This document shows, piece after piece, positions 4,342 to 58,403 of a DNA stretch of 64,000 nucleotides. This DNA is from a virus. Taxonomy: Duplodnaviria; Heunggongvirae; Uroviricota; Caudoviricetes. Location of the stretch: the IMG/VR virus record IMGVR_UViG_3300042894_006602; one strand, 5' to 3'. The position numbers were made by a program, and so were the translations under genes. Below the pieces are notes generated by a model. The model made no database searches, had not been told where the DNA came from, and saw only the letters and a list, made by a program, of their open reading frames with translations. Positions within the stretch are counted from its first letter, which is position 1; the number at the start of each line of letters is the position of its first letter.

Positions 4342-5070
4342 ATGAAACCACTACGAAAACTTATATTAATGACTTCTATGCTACTTGGAATGTTTCAAGT
4401 AACATTTAGTCAAGTTGGTTCTGTTAAAACAGAATCTTATCAAGCATCTTTTGAAAAAACACAATCAATTGATAGTGTTTCAAATTACACAGACACAATT
4501 CAAGTTCCGATACAGTTACTTAAAATTGGTATCAATGCTGAACTTTATGACCTTTATCCAGAATTGAAAGACAAAAGAGTTGGTTTAGGTGTTACTAACA
4601 TCGTGATTGAATATTTAGAGATGACGGGTAGATTTGTCTTTACTGAAGAAAAAGAAGAAATCAAACAAAGAATGATTGCTCAAGATAAAGCATCAGATAA
4701 AGGTGTTTCTTCAAATAAGATTGAAGTAAAAGGAAATGTTGTCTTAGCAAAATATTTTGTTTATATCGAAGTTTATGACTTTTCTGTTTCTGAAGATGAA
4801 GTTGTAAAAATCAATGGTGAACAAAAAACAACTCAGACTACAAGATTAGGTCTACAAATTAAGTTTGTAGATGCTGAGACTTCTGAAGTATTGGTAGGTT
4901 CTGGCTTAGGTGAAGCATCAACTATTAAAACAGAGTCTATTTTAGATGGTGTTGAAGATGGTGTTAAATTCAATCAATCAACAATTGGTATTACTACTAA
5001 AAAGGCACTTGAAACTGCTTCTTCAAGAGTAGTTACGAGAATGATTAAAAAAGGAATATTTAAAAATTAA
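4342..5070 (+). CDS. secreted/lipoprotein-like protein, possibly CsgG/LPP20-like
   Basis: N-terminal signal peptide. The segment RVGLGVTNIVIEYLEMTGRFVFTEEKEE loosely resembles the CsgG family. The family call is weak. Confidence 0.5.
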   Translation: MKPLRKLILMTSMLLGMFQVTFSQVGSVKTESYQASFEKTQSIDSVSNYTDTIQVPIQLLKIGINAELYDLYPELKDKRVGLGVTNIVIEYLEMTGRFVFTEEKEEIKQRMIAQDKASDKGVSSNKIEVKGNVVLAKYFVYIEVYDFSVSEDEVVKINGEQKTTQTTRLGLQIKFVDAETSEVLVGSGLGEASTIKTESILDGVEDGVKFNQSTIGITTKKALETASSRVVTRMIKKGIFKN

Positions 5071-9702: not shown

Positions 9703-10437
9703 TTAGTTTATAACTACTAAGTTTATTTTACCAGATAAATCTTCATATAAAAAGGAACAAGTTTCACAGAAATCACCAGTATTGTAATAATTTTTATTAT
9801 CTATTTTCTCAATAGCCGGTGTGTGTATGTGACCTATCATTATAGAGTCGCAACCAACCTCATCTAACTTTTTCATTGAGAGAATTTTAAAGTCATTTAT
9901 AAAAGCAATAGCATTTTTGACTTTAAGTTTTAAATATTGAGATAGTGACCAGTATTGCAGACCAAAAAACCTCCTAAACTTATTATACCAAGTGTTAATC
10001 TTAAAACTCATTTCATAAGCCCAATCACCTAATACATAAATAAACGGGTGTAGCCTAATAAAACCGTCAAACTGGTCACCGTGACATATATAGATTTTTT
10101 CACCAGAAACCGTTGTATGATAGTGCTCATCACAAAGCAGAATATCACCTATACTTATATTTTCTTCTTCGATTAATCCCCTTAAGTAAAAGTCATGATT
10201 TCCAAGAATGTAAACAACTTCTACTCCTTTTCTCGAGGATCTTAATATCTTTTGTATTACTGTCGAATGGTCTGACTTCCAATAGAATTTTCTTTTAAGT
10301 GAAGTCAAATCAATAAAATCACCAACTATAACTAATTTTTCATACTCGTAATCTTTAAGAACTTGTAAGAGTTTTTCAGCCTGACATTTTGATGTTCCTA
10401 AATGAACATCGGAAATGAATAAAGTTTTAATTTTCAT
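9703..10437 (-). CDS. LpxH-like calcineurin-type metallophosphoesterase
   Basis: Motifs LFISDVHLG, VGDFIDL, LGNHDF, CHGDQFD and GHIHTP align block by block with E. coli LpxH (UDP-2,3-diacylglucosamine diphosphatase). Confidence 0.6.
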   Translation of the reverse strand: MKIKTLFISDVHLGTSKCQAEKLLQVLKDYEYEKLVIVGDFIDLTSLKRKFYWKSDHSTVIQKILRSSRKGVEVVYILGNHDFYLRGLIEEENISIGDILLCDEHYHTTVSGEKIYICHGDQFDGFIRLHPFIYVLGDWAYEMSFKINTWYNKFRRFFGLQYWSLSQYLKLKVKNAIAFINDFKILSMKKLDEVGCDSIMIGHIHTPAIEKIDNKNYYNTGDFCETCSFLYEDLSGKINLVVIN

Positions 10438-10579: not shown

Positions 10580-11125
10580 ATGGAAAAAGAATTATTAGAA
10601 AGTTATTTAAATGACGGACATTCACTAAATCAAATCTCAAAAATTACGGGAAAATCATTGACTAGTATCAGATATTGGAAAGATAAGTATTCTTTGAAAT
10701 CTTTATTTAGTTCAATTAAAGATAAAGCAGTTCAAGATTATGGTGAATATAGGTTTTGTCCGAGATGTAAAAAAGATATAAAGACAGACCAATTTTATAA
10801 AAGAAGAGGCAAAGAAAATAGCTCGGTATATTGTAAAAGTTGCACATCAGATCAGACTTTAGAAAGAATGAGAAAATTAAAATCTCAAATGATTGAATAT
10901 AAAGGTGGTTGTTGTGTCAGATGTGGTTATGATAAATATCAAGGTGCTTTAGAATTTCATCACTTAGATCCAAAAGAAAAAGATTTCAATCCTTCACGCC
11001 TAAAAAAATACTCTTTTGATGATAGAGTAAAGTTTGAGCTGGATAAGTGTATTTTAGTTTGTTCTAACTGTCACAGAGAAATTCATCACGAAATAAATCA
11101 AAAAGAAAAAGAGACCCAAATCTGA
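10580..11125 (+). CDS. HNH endonuclease with N-terminal HTH and Cys4 zinc finger
   Basis: CPRCKK...CKSC and GGCCVRCGY...HHLDP...N...CSNCHREIHHE fit the HNH fold. Confidence 0.65.
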   Translation: MEKELLESYLNDGHSLNQISKITGKSLTSIRYWKDKYSLKSLFSSIKDKAVQDYGEYRFCPRCKKDIKTDQFYKRRGKENSSVYCKSCTSDQTLERMRKLKSQMIEYKGGCCVRCGYDKYQGALEFHHLDPKEKDFNPSRLKKYSFDDRVKFELDKCILVCSNCHREIHHEINQKEKETQI

Positions 11126-11140
11126 GTCTCTTTTTTTTGT
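11111..11140 (+). terminator. rho-independent terminator (GAGAC...GTCTC + T8)
   Basis: Hairpin gagacccaaatctgagtctc followed by tttttttt immediately after the HNH gene stop. Confidence 0.7.
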
Positions 11141-11423
11141 GATCCCGTTTGGATTCGAACCAAAGACCTACTGCTTAGACATACCACTATAGTTTTCACT
11201 ACCATTTCTGTTTGTGGTCTGGACTATATCATCACCTTCAACATTACTTGTTAAGGTGCCTCCCCCTTAGTCTCTACACATTTCCTCATTTCTGAGGGTT
11301 AGCTCGGTATTACCATCACCTCGAAGTGTTAAGGCTTCACCGAATTCGAGAAGTTCTATTTAATCATTTCTGACTAAACGCCCCCTTTGAGGCAGTTGCT
11401 CTATCCAGCTGAGCTACGGGACC
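11140..11423 (-). tRNA. intron-containing tRNA gene, probably tRNA-Arg(UCU); exons 11390-11423 and 11140-11179
   Basis: Minus strand reads GGTCCCG-TA-GCTC-AGCTGGATA-GAGC-A-ACTGC-CT, then a 210-nt insert, then TCTAA-GCAGT-AGGTC-TTTGG-TTCGAAT-CCAAA-CGGGATC-A. Acceptor, D, anticodon and T stems all pair. The anticodon assignment depends on the inferred splice junction (after U33; omega-G at 11180). Confidence 0.6.
11180..11389 (-). other. group I intron (IC3-like) in tRNA anticodon loop
   Basis: The intron contains GAAUUCGGUGAAGCCUUAAC and GUGUAGAGACUAAGGGGGAGGCACC, close matches to the P4-P6 and P7/P3 strands of the Azoarcus tRNA-Ile and Anabaena tRNA-Leu introns (AAUUCGGCGAAACCUAAG / GUGUAGAGACUAGACGGCACC, recalled from memory). 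A short P1 forms between exon GCCU and intron GGGC. The terminal G precedes exon 2. There is no internal ORF. Confidence 0.75.
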
Positions 11424-11459
11424 CTTTATTTATAAGGCTTTCCGAAGATTACCTTTTTG

Positions 11460-11543
11460 TAGTCGAGGCGGGAGTCGAACCCGCACGGGCAAATGCCCAC
11501 AGGATTTTAAGTCCGGCGTGTCTACCTATTCCACCACTCGACC
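11460..11543 (-). tRNA. tRNA-Leu(UAA)
   Basis: Minus strand reads GGTCGAG..CTTAAAA..TGGGCATTTGCCCGT (long variable arm)..GCGGGTTCGACTCCCGC..CTCGACT-A. T-arm and acceptor pair cleanly. There is one C-U mismatch in the anticodon stem. Confidence 0.65.
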
Positions 11544-11711
11544 TTCTTATTACAAAGATAAAAATTTTATTTGAATTGTGCTATATTGTTTACTATTTTT
11601 TTTAAATATTTACAGAAATCGATGAACTCATTCAACGTAAAACTATTACGATGCTCTAGGTGCATCTGTGAAATGGCTTGCTGATATTTGGCAAACCACT
11701 TTTTAGATAAA

Positions 11712-20720: not shown

Positions 20721-21503
20721 ATGAGAGTTTGTAAAGAATGTAAATTAGAAAAACAGTTAGTTGATTTTCCATTGAAGAAGAACGGTAAAGTTAAAAGTTC
20801 TTTATGTAAAGAATGTTACAATGACTTTTATTACCATCAAAATAAAGAAAAGGTTGTTGAATATAAAAAAAATTATTATGAAGAGAATAAAGACAAAATA
20901 AAAGAGAAAAATAAAGAAACCTATCACCTCAACAAAGATGAGATAAATAAAAGAAGAAGAAAAAATTATGAAGAAAACAAAGAATCCTTTAAAGAAAAAA
21001 GAGATGAATACTTTAACAATAATAAAGAAAAAATAAATGAGAGAAGAAGGTCATATCACAGTAAAAATAAAGATATTATAAATAATAGAAGAAAAGAGAA
21101 AAATAGAAAATACGCTTTAGAATATTATTATGCAAATAAAGAAAGACAAAATAAAAGATCAGTTGAAAGAAGAATTGAAAAATTAAAAACTGATCCTTTC
21201 TATAAATTAATACATAATATTAGATGTTTAGTCAGAAAGTCCTTACAAAATCAATTCACAACTAAATCCAAAAAAACAATAGAAATACTGGGTTGTTCCT
21301 TTGAAGAATTCAAACTTCATTTAGAATCTCAGTTTGATGATAAAATGAATTGGGAAAATCAGGGAACTTATTGGCATATGGATCATATAATACCTATATC
21401 GTCTGCTAAAACAGAGGAAGATGTTTATAGGTTAAATCACTATACAAATTTTCAACCTCTTTATTGGGAAGATAATTTGAAAAAAAGTAATAAAATAATA
21501 TGA
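20721..21503 (+). CDS. HNH endonuclease with N-terminal CxxC zinc finger and basic repeat region
   Basis: CKECK..CKECY. Four basic repeats of the form NKxxINxRRRxxY. C-terminal WHMDHIIPIS...N matches HNH. Confidence 0.5.
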   Translation: MRVCKECKLEKQLVDFPLKKNGKVKSSLCKECYNDFYYHQNKEKVVEYKKNYYEENKDKIKEKNKETYHLNKDEINKRRRKNYEENKESFKEKRDEYFNNNKEKINERRRSYHSKNKDIINNRRKEKNRKYALEYYYANKERQNKRSVERRIEKLKTDPFYKLIHNIRCLVRKSLQNQFTTKSKKTIEILGCSFEEFKLHLESQFDDKMNWENQGTYWHMDHIIPISSAKTEEDVYRLNHYTNFQPLYWEDNLKKSNKII

Positions 21504-22648
21504 GTGAATATAAAGTTGAAGATTTAGGTCAGGTTTTTACACCAATTGATATAGTCAATAAAATGACATCAATGATTAAAAACGGCATGAGAATTTTAGA
21601 ACCTTCTTGTGGTGATGGTGCATTTTTAGAGGTTTTGGAAAATTTATATAAAAATGTAATTGGTATTGAGTTTGATGGTCATCATTGTCCTCCAAATGCA
21701 CTTAACATGGATTTTTTTGATTATTCTGTAGATGAAAAGTTTGATACAATTATAGGAAATCCACCATACGTTAGTGGAAAAAAAATAATTAAAGAAACAA
21801 TCGACAAAATTAGTAGCAAATTAATAACTCATGGTAAATCAAATCTTTATCTTTATTTTATAGAAAAATGTATCAATCATTTAACAGAAAACGGTGAAAT
21901 TATATTCATAACACCAAGAGAATTTATAAAAAACACATCATCTTGTAAATTAAATAATTTCCTATATGAAAAAGGAACTATAACACATTGGTATGAATTT
22001 GGTGATGAGGTCATATTTAAAGGTTACTCACCATCAGTTGTTATTTTTAGATTTGAAAAAAATAACTTTTCTAGAAAAACAATAACTAATGATGGTGAAA
22101 AGAATTTCATAAATTCAAATGGTCAATTATTATTTTTAGATAAGGAATTAAAAGGAAAAAAACTTGGTGATTTATTTTTAGTGAAAGTTGGTGGTGTGAG
22201 TGGAATGGACCAAATATTTGCTGAAGAAAGTGGTAATGAAGATTTTGTTTGTTCATATACAGCCCAAACAGGTAGTTTAAAAAAATTTCACTACAATATA
22301 TTAAATGACTATATGATTTCTAAAAAAGATTTAGTCATAAAAAGAAAAATTAAGAAATTCGATGAAACTAACTGGTGGACGTGGGGTAGAGACTTTTATA
22401 AATCAGATAGAAGAAGAATATATGTAAATGCAAAAACGAGAAATCCCAACCCATTTTTTATAAATGAGTGTAGAAATTATGATGGTTCTATTTTGGCTTT
22501 AATACCAAAAAATGATGAGATAGAATCAAATATTGATAATTATTTGATTAAATTAAATAAAATTGATTGGAACTCGTTAGGATTTAAAGTCGGTGGTAGA
22601 TATATGTTCACTCAGAAAACACTTGAAAACATAATTTTAGATATCTAA
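21500..22648 (+). CDS. N6-adenine DNA methyltransferase (gamma class, Eco57I/TaqI-like)
   Basis: VFTPIDIV, the AdoMet site ILEPSCGDGAFL, and the catalytic IIGNPPY. Start overlaps the HNH gene stop by 4 nt. Confidence 0.75.
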   Translation: MSEYKVEDLGQVFTPIDIVNKMTSMIKNGMRILEPSCGDGAFLEVLENLYKNVIGIEFDGHHCPPNALNMDFFDYSVDEKFDTIIGNPPYVSGKKIIKETIDKISSKLITHGKSNLYLYFIEKCINHLTENGEIIFITPREFIKNTSSCKLNNFLYEKGTITHWYEFGDEVIFKGYSPSVVIFRFEKNNFSRKTITNDGEKNFINSNGQLLFLDKELKGKKLGDLFLVKVGGVSGMDQIFAEESGNEDFVCSYTAQTGSLKKFHYNILNDYMISKKDLVIKRKIKKFDETNWWTWGRDFYKSDRRRIYVNAKTRNPNPFFINECRNYDGSILALIPKNDEIESNIDNYLIKLNKIDWNSLGFKVGGRYMFTQKTLENIILDI

Positions 22649-35370: not shown

Positions 35371-36252
35371 ATGGCAAAAGACACTTATTTAGATCCACTC
35401 TACAAATGGACTGGTGGTAAAAGAAAAGAAATCAAAACATTTAGTAAATACTATCCAGAGTTTATTACTAACGGAGAAGAATATACTTTTGTTGAACCGT
35501 TTTTTGGAGGTGGTGCTGTTTACTGGTCACTTAACGCAAAAAATAATGTTATCAATGATATTGATGAAGAGTTAGTAAATTTCATTAGACAAGCAAAATC
35601 AAATCCAGAGGCAATCAGATTGGCAGTTAAACAAGTTGGAGATAAAATTAAAGCAGTCAGTGAAAGAGAAAAAGCAAAAGAACTTACAATCGCTGAGGCA
35701 AAAACACTTAGAGGCGAAAACTACTATGAGTGGAGAAATAAAGACCGTAAAGATGGTTTAACTTGGATGTCTGAATTAGATAGAGCCAGTCGTTTTTATA
35801 TCGTTAATCAATTAGCGTTTAATGGTATGAGACGTTTTAACTCCAGAGGTGAATTTAATATTCCATACGGTAATTATAAGTCATTAAATATTGACCTGTC
35901 TGAAAAACACGTTGAACTTTTACAAAGAACTGAAGTACTTTGTGGAAGTTACAAAGATGTTATGTTGGCAAATGATAAACCAAACACATTCATTTATTTA
36001 GATCCACCATATACCAGAGAGTTCAATGAGTATTCACATGAAAATGTATTTGGTACAAAACAACAAATTGAATTAGCCGATACATTTAAATCTATGAAAG
36101 AGGCTAAAGTTATGATTATCATTAACAAAGATGATTTCACAACTGAACTTTACAAAGACTACATCAAATTGACTTATGATTTAAAGTATTCAACTAATAT
36201 CAAAAACAGATATGACAATTCAGTTCAACATATTGTCGTTACAAATTATTAA
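35371..36252 (+). CDS. dam: Dam-family N6-adenine DNA methyltransferase
   Basis: YKWTGGKRK (KWAGGK), FVEPFFGGGAVY, FNGMRRFNSRGEFNIPYG and FIYLDPPY align with E. coli and T4 Dam. Confidence 0.85.
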   Translation: MAKDTYLDPLYKWTGGKRKEIKTFSKYYPEFITNGEEYTFVEPFFGGGAVYWSLNAKNNVINDIDEELVNFIRQAKSNPEAIRLAVKQVGDKIKAVSEREKAKELTIAEAKTLRGENYYEWRNKDRKDGLTWMSELDRASRFYIVNQLAFNGMRRFNSRGEFNIPYGNYKSLNIDLSEKHVELLQRTEVLCGSYKDVMLANDKPNTFIYLDPPYTREFNEYSHENVFGTKQQIELADTFKSMKEAKVMIIINKDDFTTELYKDYIKLTYDLKYSTNIKNRYDNSVQHIVVTNY

Positions 36253-41524: not shown

Positions 41525-42697
41525 TTATAAAAGATTTTTGAAATTTTCTATTTCTCTCTTTTTAATTTCAATTCCTAAATCTCTACCCTTAAAACCCTGA
41601 GACATAAGCTCTTCAGCCGATGTGATTGGTTTATACTCAACGAATTTAATTTTGACATTATCATTAATGCCCAATGCTTTATACCATTCAATTATAGTAT
41701 TATCATCAATGTGACACTGAAGTTTAGATTTATACATATCAAAAGCCAACTCAGGAGTTAATTGTAATAATCTAATTAAGAAAACCACTTTTGTTGATAC
41801 TTCTGATTCTATTTTATAATCTTGAACCAATTTCTTTTCTAATCCATCCGTACTTTCATTCTTAAATAGATTAGCAATAACTACAACAAAATCTTTACTA
41901 TCAACTAATTCAGTATTGATATCAGAATCCGGAAATACTTCAGACCACATATCAAACTTAGTAAAGAAGTTCAAATAGTTTCTATAATCTTTTGCTTGTT
42001 TCCAAGCTTTCTTCATTTCTTCCCAGACTCTTTCTTGAGAAATTCTTTTCATTTCACCAGTTTCAGGTTCTATATTTTCTAATTGTTTTCTTTTTTCAAT
42101 TGCCTTCTCAGTGTCTACATGAAGTGGATGTCCATATCTCGAAGCAAAACGAAATGCTCTTAAAATTCTTAAACTATCTTCGTCAAACCTTTCTATAGGA
42201 TCACCAACCATTTGAGTTATACCTTTTTCTAAGTGCTCACGACCTCCAGTCAAATCAACAATCTCTTTATTATCTAAGTCATAGAAAAGTGCGTTATAAG
42301 TCAAATCTCTTCTTTTAACATCATCTTCAATAGTAACTCCTAATTTAACTTCAGGGTTTCTTCCTTTACTAACATCTTCTCTGAATGTAGCAATTTCCAT
42401 TCCCTCTGGTTGATCATCGGTGAATACAACTACAACTCCAAATGCTTTACCCTGTAAGTTAGTCTTATAATCTTTTCCGATGATTTCTAATACCTCATCT
42501 GGGAGAGCGTCAGTTGCTAAGTCAAAGTCTTTTGGTTTATCTCCAGTGAGGAAGTCTCTAACGGCACCTCCGACGACATACAATTTTTTTCCTTTTGATT
42601 TGAAAAGTAATTGCAATTCTTTAACCGATTGTGGAATTATATTCCACATATCTGAACTTTGTGATTCTAAAAACTGTTGATATTTTTTAATTTTCAT
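41525..42697 (-). CDS. cca: tRNA nucleotidyltransferase (CCA-adding enzyme / poly(A) polymerase head-domain family), N-tagged (MKIKKYQQFLES)
   Basis: LYVVGGAVRDFLTG..PKDFDLAT (the GG..RD..DxD nucleotidyltransferase core), RDLTYNALFYD and DPIERFDEDSLRILRAFRFASRYG match class II CCA enzymes. Confidence 0.8.
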   Translation of the reverse strand: MKIKKYQQFLESQSSDMWNIIPQSVKELQLLFKSKGKKLYVVGGAVRDFLTGDKPKDFDLATDALPDEVLEIIGKDYKTNLQGKAFGVVVVFTDDQPEGMEIATFREDVSKGRNPEVKLGVTIEDDVKRRDLTYNALFYDLDNKEIVDLTGGREHLEKGITQMVGDPIERFDEDSLRILRAFRFASRYGHPLHVDTEKAIEKRKQLENIEPETGEMKRISQERVWEEMKKAWKQAKDYRNYLNFFTKFDMWSEVFPDSDINTELVDSKDFVVVIANLFKNESTDGLEKKLVQDYKIESEVSTKVVFLIRLLQLTPELAFDMYKSKLQCHIDDNTIIEWYKALGINDNVKIKFVEYKPITSAEELMSQGFKGRDLGIEIKKREIENFKNLL

Positions 42698-51004: not shown

Positions 51005-51047
51005 CTAAAAATAAAAAAGTCTCAGATTTCTCTGAGACTTTTTTTAC
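51005..51047. terminator. bidirectional terminator (GTCTCAGATTTCTCTGAGAC + T7)
   Basis: Perfect hairpin with the same core as the terminator at 37601-37618. Confidence 0.75.
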
Positions 51048-52516
51048 TTTTCATTTCCCTCAATAGTAATTTGTTTCACCTTACCATTAGTTCTTGAAAT
51101 GGGACACTTAACACCAACTGAGATAATCAAAACCTTACCTTTTACTTTTGAAAAATCAAGAGTGTCGGTATAACCATCCGTCAACAATACACTATTACAA
51201 TCGTTGTGATGTTCTACAATGTAGTCAATCATTGGTTGTAAGCAAGTTCCTCCCAATCCTTTAATCGGAATACTTTCAAGTTGTCTTTTACTTTTGATAT
51301 TTTCAACCCAGTTCACTTGTGTATCACTTTCCATGAAATTTATTTCAATATCATTTCGATAAACATAAGAAAGAACTCTCTCAAATGTTCCCTGACCACC
51401 CATTGAACCAGAAGTATCAAGTCCAACATTAATCTTAGTTTTCACCTTACGAGCTCCTTTCAATCCAGAGATACCTTTACGATTAGGCTTAACAATAGTT
51501 CTTTCTTTAACGGTTCCGAAAATCATATTAGAAACTGCTCTTTTGATTTCACGAAGATAATCTTTACGTTTCTTACGAAGTTTGTTCAATGTTTGTTCAA
51601 CATTACCAGCAGAAAGACCACGAGCCGCCAATCGCTCCATAACATCTTTAACCATCGCATCTCTCAATTCTTCTGGAACATCATCACCAATATGTTTATC
51701 AAGATATTCACCGCTACCGTTTTCCATATCTTGGAAGATTTGCTCTTTTGACCATGTGTCGAGTGATTCACCATCTTTTGATGGATTTTTTCCATAAGGC
51801 CCATAAGAAGGCTTTCCAGTAGAGTCTTTACCACCTTCGTTTCCGGTACCATCGCAATCAGGACACTTTTCATCTTGAGGTTGACCATCACCACTACCAG
51901 TGCCAGAACCTTTTTCATCTTTTTTATCACCTTTGCCTTCACCATCAGATTTTTGGCCATCACCTTTGTTATCAGATTTCTTACCAGATCCGTTACAAGA
52001 TTGACATTGTGAGTTTTGTTTTTGCTCTTTTTGCCATTTATCTTTTTCATCTTTTAGCCACTCATACAATTCTTCAAAGATAAGTTTTCCTGTATATTCT
52101 TTTGGAACAAAAAGAGCCATATTCTTACCATCAGAAGATTTTGGAATTTCAACAAACGCATGTGGAATATCCTCCCAAATAACGTGGTTAATAATCATAT
52201 CCTGTGCAATGTTTGACAATTTGTGGTCGTATTGACCAGTAATTGTTCTACGAGGGTGGTTAAAAAGAAGGTGAAAATCTTCGTGTAGAGTGATAAAATT
52301 CACTTCTTTTTGAGACATGTTTTCTAAAAACTTTGGTGAGTAGTAGAAGTTCATGCCCTTTGAGGTTACGTTTACTGCACAAGTTCCGATAGAATCTTGC
52401 TCGTGGAAACTGACGTGTAGGTTAAACTCACCGTAATAAGGAAGATTGATTTTAGTATCAATCAACATTGTTTGGATACCGTTGAGTAATTTTTCGTGGA
52501 TGTTCTTAATTATCAT
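51044..52516 (-). CDS. putative metallopeptidase (HExxH) fused to VWA domain (DUF2201-like architecture) with Gly/Asp/Lys-rich CxxC linker
   Basis: LHEDFHLLFNHP (HExxH). MIDAS-type GLDTSGSMGG. The central low-complexity linker contains CQSC and CPDC. Confidence 0.6.
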   Translation of the reverse strand: MIIKNIHEKLLNGIQTMLIDTKINLPYYGEFNLHVSFHEQDSIGTCAVNVTSKGMNFYYSPKFLENMSQKEVNFITLHEDFHLLFNHPRRTITGQYDHKLSNIAQDMIINHVIWEDIPHAFVEIPKSSDGKNMALFVPKEYTGKLIFEELYEWLKDEKDKWQKEQKQNSQCQSCNGSGKKSDNKGDGQKSDGEGKGDKKDEKGSGTGSGDGQPQDEKCPDCDGTGNEGGKDSTGKPSYGPYGKNPSKDGESLDTWSKEQIFQDMENGSGEYLDKHIGDDVPEELRDAMVKDVMERLAARGLSAGNVEQTLNKLRKKRKDYLREIKRAVSNMIFGTVKERTIVKPNRKGISGLKGARKVKTKINVGLDTSGSMGGQGTFERVLSYVYRNDIEINFMESDTQVNWVENIKSKRQLESIPIKGLGGTCLQPMIDYIVEHHNDCNSVLLTDGYTDTLDFSKVKGKVLIISVGVKCPISRTNGKVKQITIEGNEK

Positions 52517-57316: not shown

Positions 57317-57658
57317 TTAGTTTTTTGTATCAATACTTACATTTGTAATTTGATTAAGTTTAATATCTCTTAACAATTGAATAAAATATCTTTCTAAATC
57401 ACTTGGTGAATTAAATTCAATTCCTATATAACTATCTTTACTATCAAAAACTATCCATTTATCTTTAGAATAAATATGATTATAGTTTGTTACACCTGGT
57501 ATAATCACAAAACTATCTAATTCATTACCTCTGTAATTTGAATCGACTTCTTCTTTCGTGAACCATTTGATGGTTTCAATACCGCTTGTCTTAGTTATTC
57601 TAAGCATATTCTTTAATTCTATTATTAGCGACTTCAATATATTCTTGTTGTCTTTCAA
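57317..57658 (-). CDS. hypothetical protein (start uncertain; overlaps MTase 3' end)
   Basis: ORF only. Confidence 0.35.
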   Translation of the reverse strand: MKDNKNILKSLIIELKNMLRITKTSGIETIKWFTKEEVDSNYRGNELDSFVIIPGVTNYNHIYSKDKWIVFDSKDSYIGIEFNSPSDLERYFIQLLRDIKLNQITNVSIDTKN

Positions 57659-58403
57659 AGCCTATAAAGGATCTACCCAGTTTTTGAGCAGAAACTCCAG
57701 TTGTTCCAGTTCCCATAAAAGGATCTAAAACTATATCACCTTCTTGAGTTGAACCTTTGATAAAATAGTCAACCAATTCGACTGGATAAACAGCGACGTG
57801 ATTATCCGCAATTCTTTTTGATTCAGATGATATATTTACCAGTGTAGTTGGAAGAGCACCAAGTGGATTAGGAGCCCAGTCTTTATATTCTTCTACTTCA
57901 TTTTCAGTTCTGGCATATCTTTTTTTCAGAGGTTTCTTCATTCTTTTAATTGATTTCTCTGAATATTCGGTTCTCATTTCATCTAAATAAAACTTGAAGC
58001 CCTTTTCTTTAGCAAACCAGAAAATATATTCTACACGGTCTCCAAATCTGCTTCTATTTGGAAGACTTTTCATTTTATTCCAGAAAAGTCTTTCAAACAT
58101 TTTTAGTTCAGTTCTTTTGTGTATTTGAGATATTAAATCAAAAACATAAGGGTGTCTGAATCCACCTTCGACTTTATCATTTATATTTAAAATAAAAGAA
58201 CCTGTCGGTTTAATAACTCGACAGATTTCATTACAGATTGGTAGAAACCACTCAACATATTCATCAGCTAAAATGCCTGGATTATCTATGTAGACTTTTA
58301 AATCAGCATATGGTGGTGATGTGATCACCAAATCAACTGAGTTGTCTGGTAATTTTAATAGAAGTTCTAAAGAATCACCTTGATATATCTGATTTAATTC
58401 CAT
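57600..58403 (-). CDS. DNA methyltransferase, beta-class N4/N6 (ParB-less DNA_methylase N-4/N-6 family)
   Basis: IYQGDSLELL, DLVITSPPYA (catalytic SPPY) and a C-terminal DPFMGTGTTG AdoMet motif. Confidence 0.8.
   Translation of the reverse strand: MELNQIYQGDSLELLLKLPDNSVDLVITSPPYADLKVYIDNPGILADEYVEWFLPICNEICRVIKPTGSFILNINDKVEGGFRHPYVFDLISQIHKRTELKMFERLFWNKMKSLPNRSRFGDRVEYIFWFAKEKGFKFYLDEMRTEYSEKSIKRMKKPLKKRYARTENEVEEYKDWAPNPLGALPTTLVNISSESKRIADNHVAVYPVELVDYFIKGSTQEGDIVLDPFMGTGTTGVSAQKLGRSFIGFERQQEYIEVANNRIKEYA

Follow-up and report, generated by a model that had tools for sequence, protein, structure and literature searches.

The window analysed here, a 64,000-nucleotide stretch of DNA from the IMG/VR virus record IMGVR_UViG_3300042894_006602, carries a tRNA-Arg(UCU) gene at positions 11423-11140 on the minus strand, with a 210-nt intron between U33 and U34. 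We consider it very probable that this is a phage tRNA-Arg(UCU) gene with a 210-nt group I intron, lacking an open reading frame (ORF), in its anticodon loop at U33/U34. The gene consists of the following parts.

11390..11423, minus strand: tRNA-Arg(UCU) exon 1, with the acceptor 5' strand, D arm, anticodon-stem 5' strand, C32 and U33 (ARAGORN -i)
11180..11389, minus strand: group I intron, 210 nt, IC3-like and ORF-less, with C11389 as its first base and omega-G at 11180 (Rfam RF00028)
11140..11179, minus strand: tRNA-Arg(UCU) exon 2, with U34 C35 U36 A37 A38, anticodon-stem 3' strand, variable loop, T arm, acceptor 3' strand and discriminator A

The interrupted tRNA-Arg(UCU) gene

Read from 11423 downward, the 5' part of the pre-tRNA is GGUCCCG UA GCUC AGCUGGAUA GAGC A ACUGC CU, followed by the 210 nt of the intron, and its 3' part is UCU AA GCAGU AGGUC UUUGG UUCGAAU CCAAA CGGGAUC A. 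Exon 1 thus ends in ...ACUGCCU (U33), the intron starts with CAAAGGGGGCG and ends with GUGGUAUG, and exon 2 starts with UCUAAGCAGU. When introns are allowed, ARAGORN reports tRNA-Arg(tct) i(35,210). It counts 34 nucleotides before the intron, and owing to one additional D-loop base the last of them is U33 in standard numbering. Default ARAGORN misses the gene and reports only the neighbouring tRNA-Leu(UAA) at 11543-11459.

The splice sites are unambiguous, since only cuts after U33 and G11180 restore a 7-nt loop and since both positions are those that a group I intron requires, namely a U.G wobble within P1 and a G as the last intron base. The 74-mer spliced in silico is a standard cloverleaf with the anticodon loop CU-UCU-AA, and both A20 in the D loop and the discriminator A can be read from the tRNA-Arg sequence. 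A20 is an identity element for the E. coli arginyl-tRNA synthetase (ArgRS).

The gene was compared with its relatives in an alignment of 34 distinct pre-tRNA sequences, whose collection is described below. All 34, spliced in silico, are called tRNA-Arg(tct) by ARAGORN. In the exon cloverleaf, 21 of 21 pairs are standard throughout (100% of 714 cells), and 13 of them have changes on both sides. Full pairing combined with compensatory change strongly indicates that selection acts on the spliced tRNA as the product.

The original prediction, made from the letters of the window, had described a tRNA whose halves pair in all stems across an insert, spliced after U33 with a 3' omega-G to give the loop CU-UCU-AA. 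Everything it described is present at its coordinates; the strand, which it left unstated, is minus. The intron-permissive tRNA detection that it proposed as a check returns tRNA-Arg(tct) with a 210-nt intron, and the in-silico 74-mer and the fully paired cloverleaf agree with it.

Identity and family of the intron

The Rfam group I intron model RF00028 matches the insert, with the model covered in full length, at 11399-11198 on the minus strand. The match reaches 67.4 bits, where the gathering score is 50, with an E-value of 6e-15 for the whole window and 3.5e-17 for 11100-11450; nine relatives score 61-84 bits. The core strings GAAUUCGGUGAAGCC and GUGUAGAGACUA...GGCACC are found in the intron, and no ORF of at least 40 aa was found within its 210 nt. 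The class of the intron, its tRNA-intron core strands and the lack of an internal homing endonuclease ORF had all been predicted, and each is borne out by these results.

Relatives were sought with the 5'-junction pattern AGAGCAA NNN CCTCAA N0-6 GGGGGYG in two scans, of a viral and of a metagenome collection. An earlier 3'-junction pattern, AGTGGTANGTCTAAG (14 specified bases), gave mostly chance matches and was replaced by this gapped one. The 5'-junction pattern together with an intron core occurs at 18 viral (IMG/VR) loci and at about 31 metagenome loci; with the window, these collapse to the 34 distinct pre-tRNA sequences (33 besides the window). Their introns are 192-213 nt long, none has an ORF, and all lie at site 33/34 of tRNA-Arg(tct). 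Contigs of the family reach 272-328 kb, and the IMG/VR relatives lie on contigs of up to 321 kb.

Among 185,579 bacterial and archaeal species genomes (one each), the pattern matched 13 times and one match is a true intron copy, on a 581-bp contig that was binned with a Paceibacterota metagenome-assembled genome (MAG). The other 12 are chance matches, and the intron core is absent from all of them. This census is a lower bound, because the search pattern is narrow and fixes P1. Intron copies, at least 34 of them distinct, are confined almost wholly to viral and metagenome contigs.

Structure and covariation

A P1-P9 model was drawn by hand after the Azoarcus layout, and its pairs were counted on the 34-sequence alignment. 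The helices are listed here in the 5' to 3' direction of the RNA.

11379..11394, minus strand: P1, exon UGCCU and intron C1 with the internal guide GGGGCG, loop AAAG; also found by RNAalifold
11359..11378, minus strand: P2 hairpin, 8 bp with a GAAA tetraloop, 99.6% of cells paired
11348..11353, minus strand: P3 5' strand (CUUCUC), partner 11259-11264; changes include C-G to A-U and U-A to C-G
11279..11344, minus strand: P4-P5-P6 domain, with P4 UUCGGUG/UACCGAG, P5, P5a, and P6/P6a with a GAAA loop
11268..11272, minus strand: P7 5' strand (GACUA), preceded by J6/7 GUAGA, partner 11222-11226
11259..11264, minus strand: P3 3' strand (GGGAGG), partner of 11348..11353
11233..11258, minus strand: P8 hairpin, outer pair C-G in 27 sequences and U-A in 7
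11222..11226, minus strand: P7 3' strand (UAGUC), inside the invariant AGUCCAGACCACAAA
11183..11218, minus strand: P9 three-way domain, with P9 ACCAC/GUGGU (99% paired), a variable P9a, and P9b with a GAAA tetraloop

The model has 65 pairs, and 92.3% of its 2153 cells are standard pairs, compared with 34-45% when the 3' partners are slid by 1-3 columns. Changes on both sides occur in 30 of the 65 modelled pairs, against 8-10 in the slid-partner controls. They are spread over P2 (7/8), P3 (4/7), P4 (1), P5a (2), P6 (1), P6a (5/5), P7 (1), P8 (4), P9a (1) and P9b (4/4). P7 is 100% paired, and its single exchange, A-U to U-A, is found in 13 sequences; P4 is 99% paired, and the internal loop of P5, CCUUAAC...GAUGG, is receptor-like. 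P3 and P7, the two helices for which the original prediction had named missing compensatory pairing as a refutation, have four pairs and one pair, respectively, changed on both sides. The omega-G stands directly before UCUAAG in all 34 introns, and in the window it is the G at 11180.

Computed folds lead to much the same helices. RNAalifold, run unguided, recovers P1, P2, P3, P4, P5, P8, P9, P9a and P9b together with three tRNA stems, and the single-sequence minimum free energy (MFE) fold of the window intron has the same helices plus P5a and P6a (z = -2.4).

Several points weigh against the explanation given at the outset. Although 0 of 500 shuffles reach the observed pairing values, such statistics overstate significance because the sequences are related, and the slid-partner control is the fairer one. 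All 34 sequences have the U33.G wobble of P1 at the 5' splice site, but the invariance of P1 is uninformative because the family search pattern demanded that sequence. P10, the pairing of the 3' exon with the guide region, has at most one pair when inspected by eye. When Rfam was run in E-value mode (limit 0.01) on the whole window, the intron was missing from the output, which we treat as a quirk of the tool; gathering-mode and subregion E-value runs give 67.4 bits. Catalysis by the intron is predicted from its conservation. Finally, no capsid, terminase or other structural phage gene was recognised in the 64-kb window, and for that reason phage origin has to be argued from homology and from the accompanying genes.

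If the intron were a decayed relic that no longer splices, and this tRNA-Arg copy a pseudogene, the near absence of P10 would fit, as would the state of P6, which in the window's subfamily is down to one firm pair. Such decay is hard to reconcile with core strands that are invariant in 34 diverged copies, with compensatory changes that keep P2, P3, P4, P5a, P6, P7, P8 and P9a/P9b, with a cloverleaf that is 100% paired, and with a tRNA that serves the dominant Arg codon. We regard a relic as very improbable. With P10 nearly absent, exon alignment would depend on the tRNA body, a role that we infer by analogy with the Anabaena pre-tRNA intron, reportedly the subject of work by Zaug et al. in 1993.

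Relation to known introns

The layout of the intron is of the IC3 type: P2 is present, L2 and L9b are GAAA loops, and the molecule is compact, with neither a P5abc nor a P2.1 extension. The GAAA loops may make tertiary contacts with receptor-like motifs in P8 and P5, as the Azoarcus intron suggests. The IC3 label given by the original prediction suits this architecture and is consistent with a similarity above the shuffled baseline to eight introns that Nakagawa et al. 2026 label IC3 (134-159 identical positions), a comparison of a different kind from a subgroup classifier. The intron fits the bacterial tRNA-intron (IC3-like) lineage.

Identity counts from global alignment were read against a shuffled baseline of about 103 +/- 7 of 210 positions. 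The best match is the Arg(TCT) 34/35 intron of Bacillota GCA_001586195.1 (159/210 positions identical), and seven other IC3-labelled or Leu-type tRNA introns share 134-151 positions with the window intron. Matches to the Azoarcus, Arg(CCU) 36/37, Arg(UCU) 36/37 and Asn 35/36 introns are not clearly above shuffled noise and were set aside.

The bacterial tRNA-Arg(UCU) 34/35 introns are thus of the same isoacceptor and the same lineage; most of their copies are ORF-less, and their 3' ends are near-identical to that of the window intron (...agtgaaaactatagtggta[a/t]g). The window intron lies one nucleotide further 5' (33/34), and therefore its P1 guide sequence differs; its host is a phage, whereas theirs is a bacterial chromosome. 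Two Arg(UCU) introns that bear a homing endonuclease gene (HEG), from Bacteroidota and Campylobacterota, encode a PD-(D/E)XK enzyme inside the intron, unlike the window, where an HNH gene lies outside.

The Azoarcus pre-tRNA-Ile(CAU) intron, also IC3, has in common with the window intron its GAAA tetraloops in P2 and P9, a compact P4-P6 without P5abc, a length of about 200 nt, and the core strands AAUUCGG.GAA, GUAGAGACUA and AUAGUCCAG. It differs in its site (36/37, after CAU) and in having a simple P9 hairpin where the window intron has a three-way junction, and the two share 117 identical positions, barely over the shuffled baseline. The 33/34 introns of other tRNAs (fMet in cyanobacteria and Bacteroidota, Leu(UAA) in Bacteroidota, Ile2, Met and Phe) occupy the same site after U33 and start with CAA/UAA... 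like the window intron, and the fMet and Leu ones are identical to it at 141-149 positions; they sit in other tRNAs and hence have other guide sequences. The cyanobacterial and plastid tRNA-Leu(UAA) 34/35 intron is of the same lineage, and a phage tRNA-Leu 34/35 intron from the closest relative of the window locus (L169, see below) shares 151 positions, while the window's own tRNA-Leu is intronless, unlike the cyanobacterial and plastid gene. The tRNA introns of the Lak megaphages (PMC6784885) likewise lie in tRNA genes of huge phages of Bacteroidota; the portion of that paper available to us places them in Tyr and Thr tRNAs and names no class.

Parts of this setting are already on record. As far as the legible portion of its Table S5 goes, Nakagawa et al. 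2026 (PMC13011429) list Arg(TCT) 34/35 introns in Bacillota, Bacteroidota and Campylobacterota, Arg(TCT) 36/37 introns in Bacteroidota, and 33/34 insertions in fMet, Leu, Ile2, Met, Phe and Thr. The corresponding portion of Williams 2020 has an entry 'Arg.3Ug', which is an Arg(UCU) 34/35 group I intron, and the published seed alignment, where legible, includes Arg.3Ug and Arg.5Ug and does not include Arg.2Ug. Site 33/34 of Arg(UCU) was not found in these two catalogues, a provisional result given that their tables are legible in part. For phages, the sections consulted of the review by Hausner et al. 2014 (PMC3984707) place all phage introns then known in protein-coding genes, even though phage tRNA genes are numerous, those of Devoto et al. 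2019 (PMC6784885) mention 'enigmatic', unclassified tRNA introns in Lak phages, and those of a 2026 study of Jug phages report 2513 group I introns, the interrupted genes described being protein genes (terL, nrdD, DNA polymerase). No explicit description of group I introns in phage tRNA genes was found in this literature, whose coverage is incomplete.

The original prediction had held such an intron to be unusual in an Arg(UCU) tRNA and in a Bacteroidetes-type or phage context. This is too strong as regards the isoacceptor, since group I introns of Arg(UCU), including those of Bacteroidota, are already listed at 34/35 and 36/37 (PMC13011429). It stands for site 33/34 in tRNA-Arg(UCU) and for a phage tRNA as host, neither of which was found described in the consulted parts of these sources. 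As a ribozyme the element is ordinary and its family well known; what is under-described is the host setting.

Genomic setting

Around the interrupted gene and elsewhere in the window, the following features bear on its expression and origin.

11459..11543, minus strand: tRNA-Leu(UAA), intronless, 35 nt upstream of tRNA-Arg (ARAGORN, Rfam)
11106..11135, no strand assigned: terminator-like hairpin with T runs on both sides, common to the tRNA-Arg transcript and the convergent HNH gene
41525..42697, minus strand: tRNA nucleotidyltransferase (CCA-adding enzyme; PHROG 2244, E = 2e-58; Pfam PolyA_pol, E = 3e-30)
21500-22648, 35371-36252 and 57600-58403: three DNA methyltransferase genes

The window has a G+C content of 25-35%, and many of its ORFs are without a family match. 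Those that are matched include DNA methyltransferases, further HNH genes, a Y-family polymerase, the CCA-adding enzyme, PAS and glycosyltransferase genes, and one ORF has a type IX secretion sorting domain. A 587-aa ORF matches, in the phage collection, only LR745206.1 (635 kb) and LR756502.1 (642 kb), two huge uncultured phages, at 51% and 45% identity, respectively, and one stretch of the window is 75% identical in DNA to LR745206.1. To judge by its sequence, the window is probably from a huge phage with a Bacteroidota host.

The same genes can be read in another way, as part of a Bacteroidota chromosome or plasmid, in which case the intron would be just another bacterial tRNA intron. The type IX sorting domain, the PAS, glycosyltransferase and Y-family polymerase genes, and the missing structural genes would suit such an origin. 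We nevertheless think it improbable, given that the 587-aa ORF matches only the two phages of about 640 kb in the phage collection, that there is DNA similarity to LR745206.1, that relatives of the locus lie on IMG/VR viral contigs full of tRNA arrays, that the species-genome collection is essentially without a copy, and that so many ORFs have no family match.

In 50 window ORFs, AGA makes up 453 of 551 Arg codons (82%) and UUA 51% of Leu codons; with both codons dominant, the tRNAs of the locus serve the main Arg and Leu codons of the phage. CCA is encoded by neither gene.

The two tRNA genes, on one strand and 35 nt apart, are probably co-transcribed. Directly after the tRNA-Arg 3' end on the minus strand, a consensus scan finds a 13-pair stem, which is a pattern match only. 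A candidate -7 motif, TATCTTTG, lies at 11553-11560 on the minus strand, 9 nt before tRNA-Leu, in AT-rich sequence; it fits TAnnTTTG, which we take to be the Bacteroidota -7 box, and no clear -33 TTTG is present near this candidate promoter. Elsewhere in the window, a 490-aa ORF at 51044-52516 (minus strand) combines a match to a PHROG 'HNH endonuclease' family with Pfam DUF2201 metallopeptidase/VWA-like domains.

Proposed splicing pathway

On the explanation that we prefer, a phage tRNA-Arg(UCU) restored by a group I intron, the locus would be transcribed from the minus strand, probably jointly with tRNA-Leu(UAA), and transcription would probably end at the hairpin 11135-11106. The intron would fold into P1-P9, and UGCCU would pair with the guide GGGGCG, setting the U33.G pair at the 5' splice site. 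An external guanosine would then attack after U33, the terminal G (11180) would enter the same binding site, and the freed 3'-OH of U33 would attack after it. Joining of the exons would yield the 74-nt tRNA with the loop CU-UCU-AA, to which CCA would be added post-transcriptionally, presumably by the phage's own CCA-adding enzyme. The mature tRNA-Arg(UCU) would read AGA, the codon for 82% of Arg in this AT-rich genome.

Presence, absence and mobility of the intron

The tRNA-Arg(UCU) gene of LR745206.1 is intronless, with an uninterrupted junction CUGCCU/UCUAAG. The spliced window tRNA is colinear with it, has no gap at the junction and is identical at 68 of 75 bases; the differences in the T stem are compensatory. 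An exact uninterrupted 35-mer across the junction occurs at no fewer than 120 viral loci.

A similar difference affects the neighbouring gene. In L169, the closest relative of the window locus (92% identical), tRNA-Leu(UAA) (9889-10180) contains a group I intron of about 204 nt at 34/35, GGACTT|gagagg...agtagtaag|AAAATCC. The window orthologue is intronless, and its exons match those of L169 wherever the alignment covers them. This tRNA-Leu intron scores under the Rfam gathering threshold, and default ARAGORN misses its gene. Since presence and absence differ among related phages, these introns come and go, and are or were mobile.

Further introns were noticed among the collected contigs. Group I introns also occur in tRNA-Leu(UAA) on the IMG/VR contigs L315 (257 kb) and L316 (27 kb); what precedes the intron core in L316 is not readable as a tRNA 5' half. 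In the crAss-like phage cr111_1 (MT774387.1 66787-66841; L004 2501-2555), 55 nt are 94.5% identical to window 11180-11234, the 3' portion of the window intron. In Pelagibacter phage HTVC120P (L003 1501-1630), a blastn match to the intron core lies between two ORFs annotated 'capsid protein', which suggests an unannotated group I intron splitting a capsid gene. The blastn core matches in L003 and in a 735-kb phage (L002) are both below the Rfam threshold.

Contigs of the intron family also carry other structured RNAs. On viral contigs, GOLLD RNA (RF02032) occurs at L026 2728-3138 (322 bits) and L095 7256-7670 (306 bits), with the intron-containing tRNA-Arg 2-3 kb away; a tmRNA gene (L089 4718-5106, 73 bits) lies on a viral contig of the family; and the contig of L095, with 18 tRNA genes, includes a tRNA with the anticodon UUA at 4571-4648, a possible ochre suppressor.

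The neighbouring HNH gene

Beyond the 3' end of the tRNA-Arg gene lies one further gene.

10580..11125, plus strand: free-standing gene of a predicted HNH endonuclease, 181 aa, with an N-terminal helix-turn-helix (HTH)-like region, Cys4 motifs and a C-terminal HNH

Its protein matches PHROG 2255 'HNH endonuclease' (E = 2e-38), while Pfam PF01844 stays under the cut-off (18.7 vs 21.4 bits) and PDB matches are weak; the Cys, His and Asn motif residues are invariant in 12 HNH homologues. The gene is convergent with tRNA-Arg and ends 14 nt beyond the tRNA 3' end. An HNH gene 15 nt upstream had been predicted; the gene is indeed adjacent, but on the plus strand, convergent and past the 3' end of the tRNA.

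In 23 of 50 family loci, a homologue (53-77% identical) stands 3' of the intron-containing tRNA. Only a remnant of the HNH gene, the C-terminal 69 residues, is left in L169, and the gene is absent from the close relatives L147 and L156, a sporadic presence at a fixed position. Outside the tRNA-Arg family, a 123-kb IMG/VR contig (L346 2073-2358) has a tRNA-Lys(UUU) gene with a 211-nt intron carrying the group I core motif, and this gene adjoins a homologue of the window HNH protein (42% identical).

A single-sequence search with the HNH protein gave only 5 distant loci, and a profile search was used instead, with its 80 best loci examined. In 48 of these 80, tRNA-Arg(tct) is the nearest feature within 150 nt, although it accounts for only 56 of the 229 tRNAs there. 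Of the 48 adjacent tRNA-Arg(UCU) genes, 44 are intronless and 4 have an intron. The HNH family is therefore tied to tRNA-Arg(UCU) and not to the intron.

An intron-specific partnership had at first seemed well supported. Among the loci with the exact uninterrupted 35-mer (at least 120, of which 120 were examined), 2 have an HNH homologue; the first matches weakly (32% identity) and lies over 3 kb away, and the second covers residues 85-173 only and lies upstream of the tRNA. The resulting comparison of 23/50 with 2/120 (Fisher p ~1e-12) is confounded, because the intronless set was fetched by one exact 35-mer while the protein-first search gave mostly intronless, diverged neighbours, and it was dropped. 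The canonical 35-mer is present in 0 of 35 HNH-adjacent intronless tRNA-Arg genes.

How these intronless alleles diverge can be followed in three close pairs. In each, the acceptor and T stems are conserved, and compensatory changes have replaced the anticodon stem of the intronless HNH-linked allele. The D and T loops have single changes in all three pairs; a 1-nt D-arm insertion is present in two, and G19A together with C56U in two. The latter is seen in the intronless HNH-linked alleles of L323 and L333, where G19A (D loop) and C56U (T loop) accompany fully compensated replacements of the anticodon stem and where the acceptor and T stems agree with those of the intron-containing alleles. 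We read the combination as a preserved tertiary 19:56 elbow pair.

Possible homing and immunity

The HNH gene is a candidate helper of intron mobility, not an established one. Collaborative (trans) homing would supplement the explanation of the tRNA gene rather than compete with it. In this tentative scheme, to which we give well under an even chance, the HNH enzyme would cut the uninterrupted tRNA-Arg(UCU) DNA of co-infecting phages, and repair would copy the HNH gene together with the intron. Its second part, equally tentative, concerns protection: the intron would split the recognition sequence, and HNH carriers without an intron would be shielded by a recoded tRNA gene.

The association of HNH genes with intact motifs with the intron-containing tRNA in 23 of 50 loci, along with the decayed remnant in L169, is consistent with such a scheme. 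The same is true of the preference for tRNA-Arg(tct), nearest in 48 of 80 HNH loci with a share of only 56 in 229 tRNAs; of the lack of canonical sequence in the HNH-adjacent intronless alleles (0/35), set beside the 2 of 120 canonical loci with any HNH homologue; and of the recoded anticodon stem in three close pairs. There are precedents in F-CphI of cyanophage S-PM2 (PMC6083498) and in the trans homing of T4 mobE and I-TevIII (PMC2790892). In the S-PM2 psbA intron with F-CphI and in T4 mobE with I-TevIII, an ORF-less or defunct intron likewise stands beside a free-standing endonuclease gene (PMC6083498, PMC2790892). The host there is a protein gene, whereas in the window it is a tRNA and the HNH enzyme is a predicted one, and the relatives of the window HNH gene, set against these intron systems, are mostly found beside intronless tRNA genes.

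Other observations tell against collaborative homing. The HNH gene does not need the intron (44 intronless neighbours against 4 with it), and half of the intron copies are without an adjacent HNH gene. The two samples come from differently biased searches and are not phylogenetically independent. Moreover, the recoding could serve to evade host RNases directed at tRNA, among the themes of the PMC10264068 abstract, or could be plain divergence.

The HNH gene may instead be an independent selfish element that homes near tRNA-Arg(UCU), its link to the intron being proximity through co-conversion or shared ancestry; we judge this to be a little short of evenly balanced. It would account for the 44 of 48 HNH-adjacent tRNA-Arg(UCU) genes that are intronless, for the several orientations and positions of the HNH gene, and for the 27 of 50 intron loci without an adjacent one. 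HNH genes are in any case common in phage tRNA regions: matches occur in more than 400 phage records, one of them overlapping a tRNA annotation. What independence leaves unexplained is that 0 of 35 HNH-adjacent intronless alleles are canonical, whereas canonical-type exons split by the intron do adjoin HNH genes.

A wider reading, which we consider rather doubtful, makes tRNA-Arg(UCU) a conflict site between a tRNA-targeting HNH family and its carriers. Carriers might then, though this too seems on the unlikely side, shield their own copy interchangeably, by the 33/34 intron or by compensatory recoding. The anticodon stem would be recoded, as would the 19:56 elbow pair in two of the three pairs, a pattern whose place in such a conflict is likewise doubtful. 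If this were true, the intron would persist as an immunity device and spread with the endonuclease, which would amount to collaborative homing in a tRNA gene.

Significance

The tRNA-Arg family, together with the tRNA-Leu and tRNA-Lys cases, means that large aquatic phages carry group I introns inside tRNA genes. Default tRNA finders miss such genes, and phage tRNA inventories and codon-supply analyses therefore undercount; the tRNA missed here is the reader of 82% of the Arg codons. The interest of the finding is raised to some extent by the size of the phage family, by this blind spot in annotation and by a testable link to the HNH gene. The steady pairing of tRNA-Arg(UCU) and the HNH family makes a compact system in which to ask whether an intron shields its host gene from a homing endonuclease.

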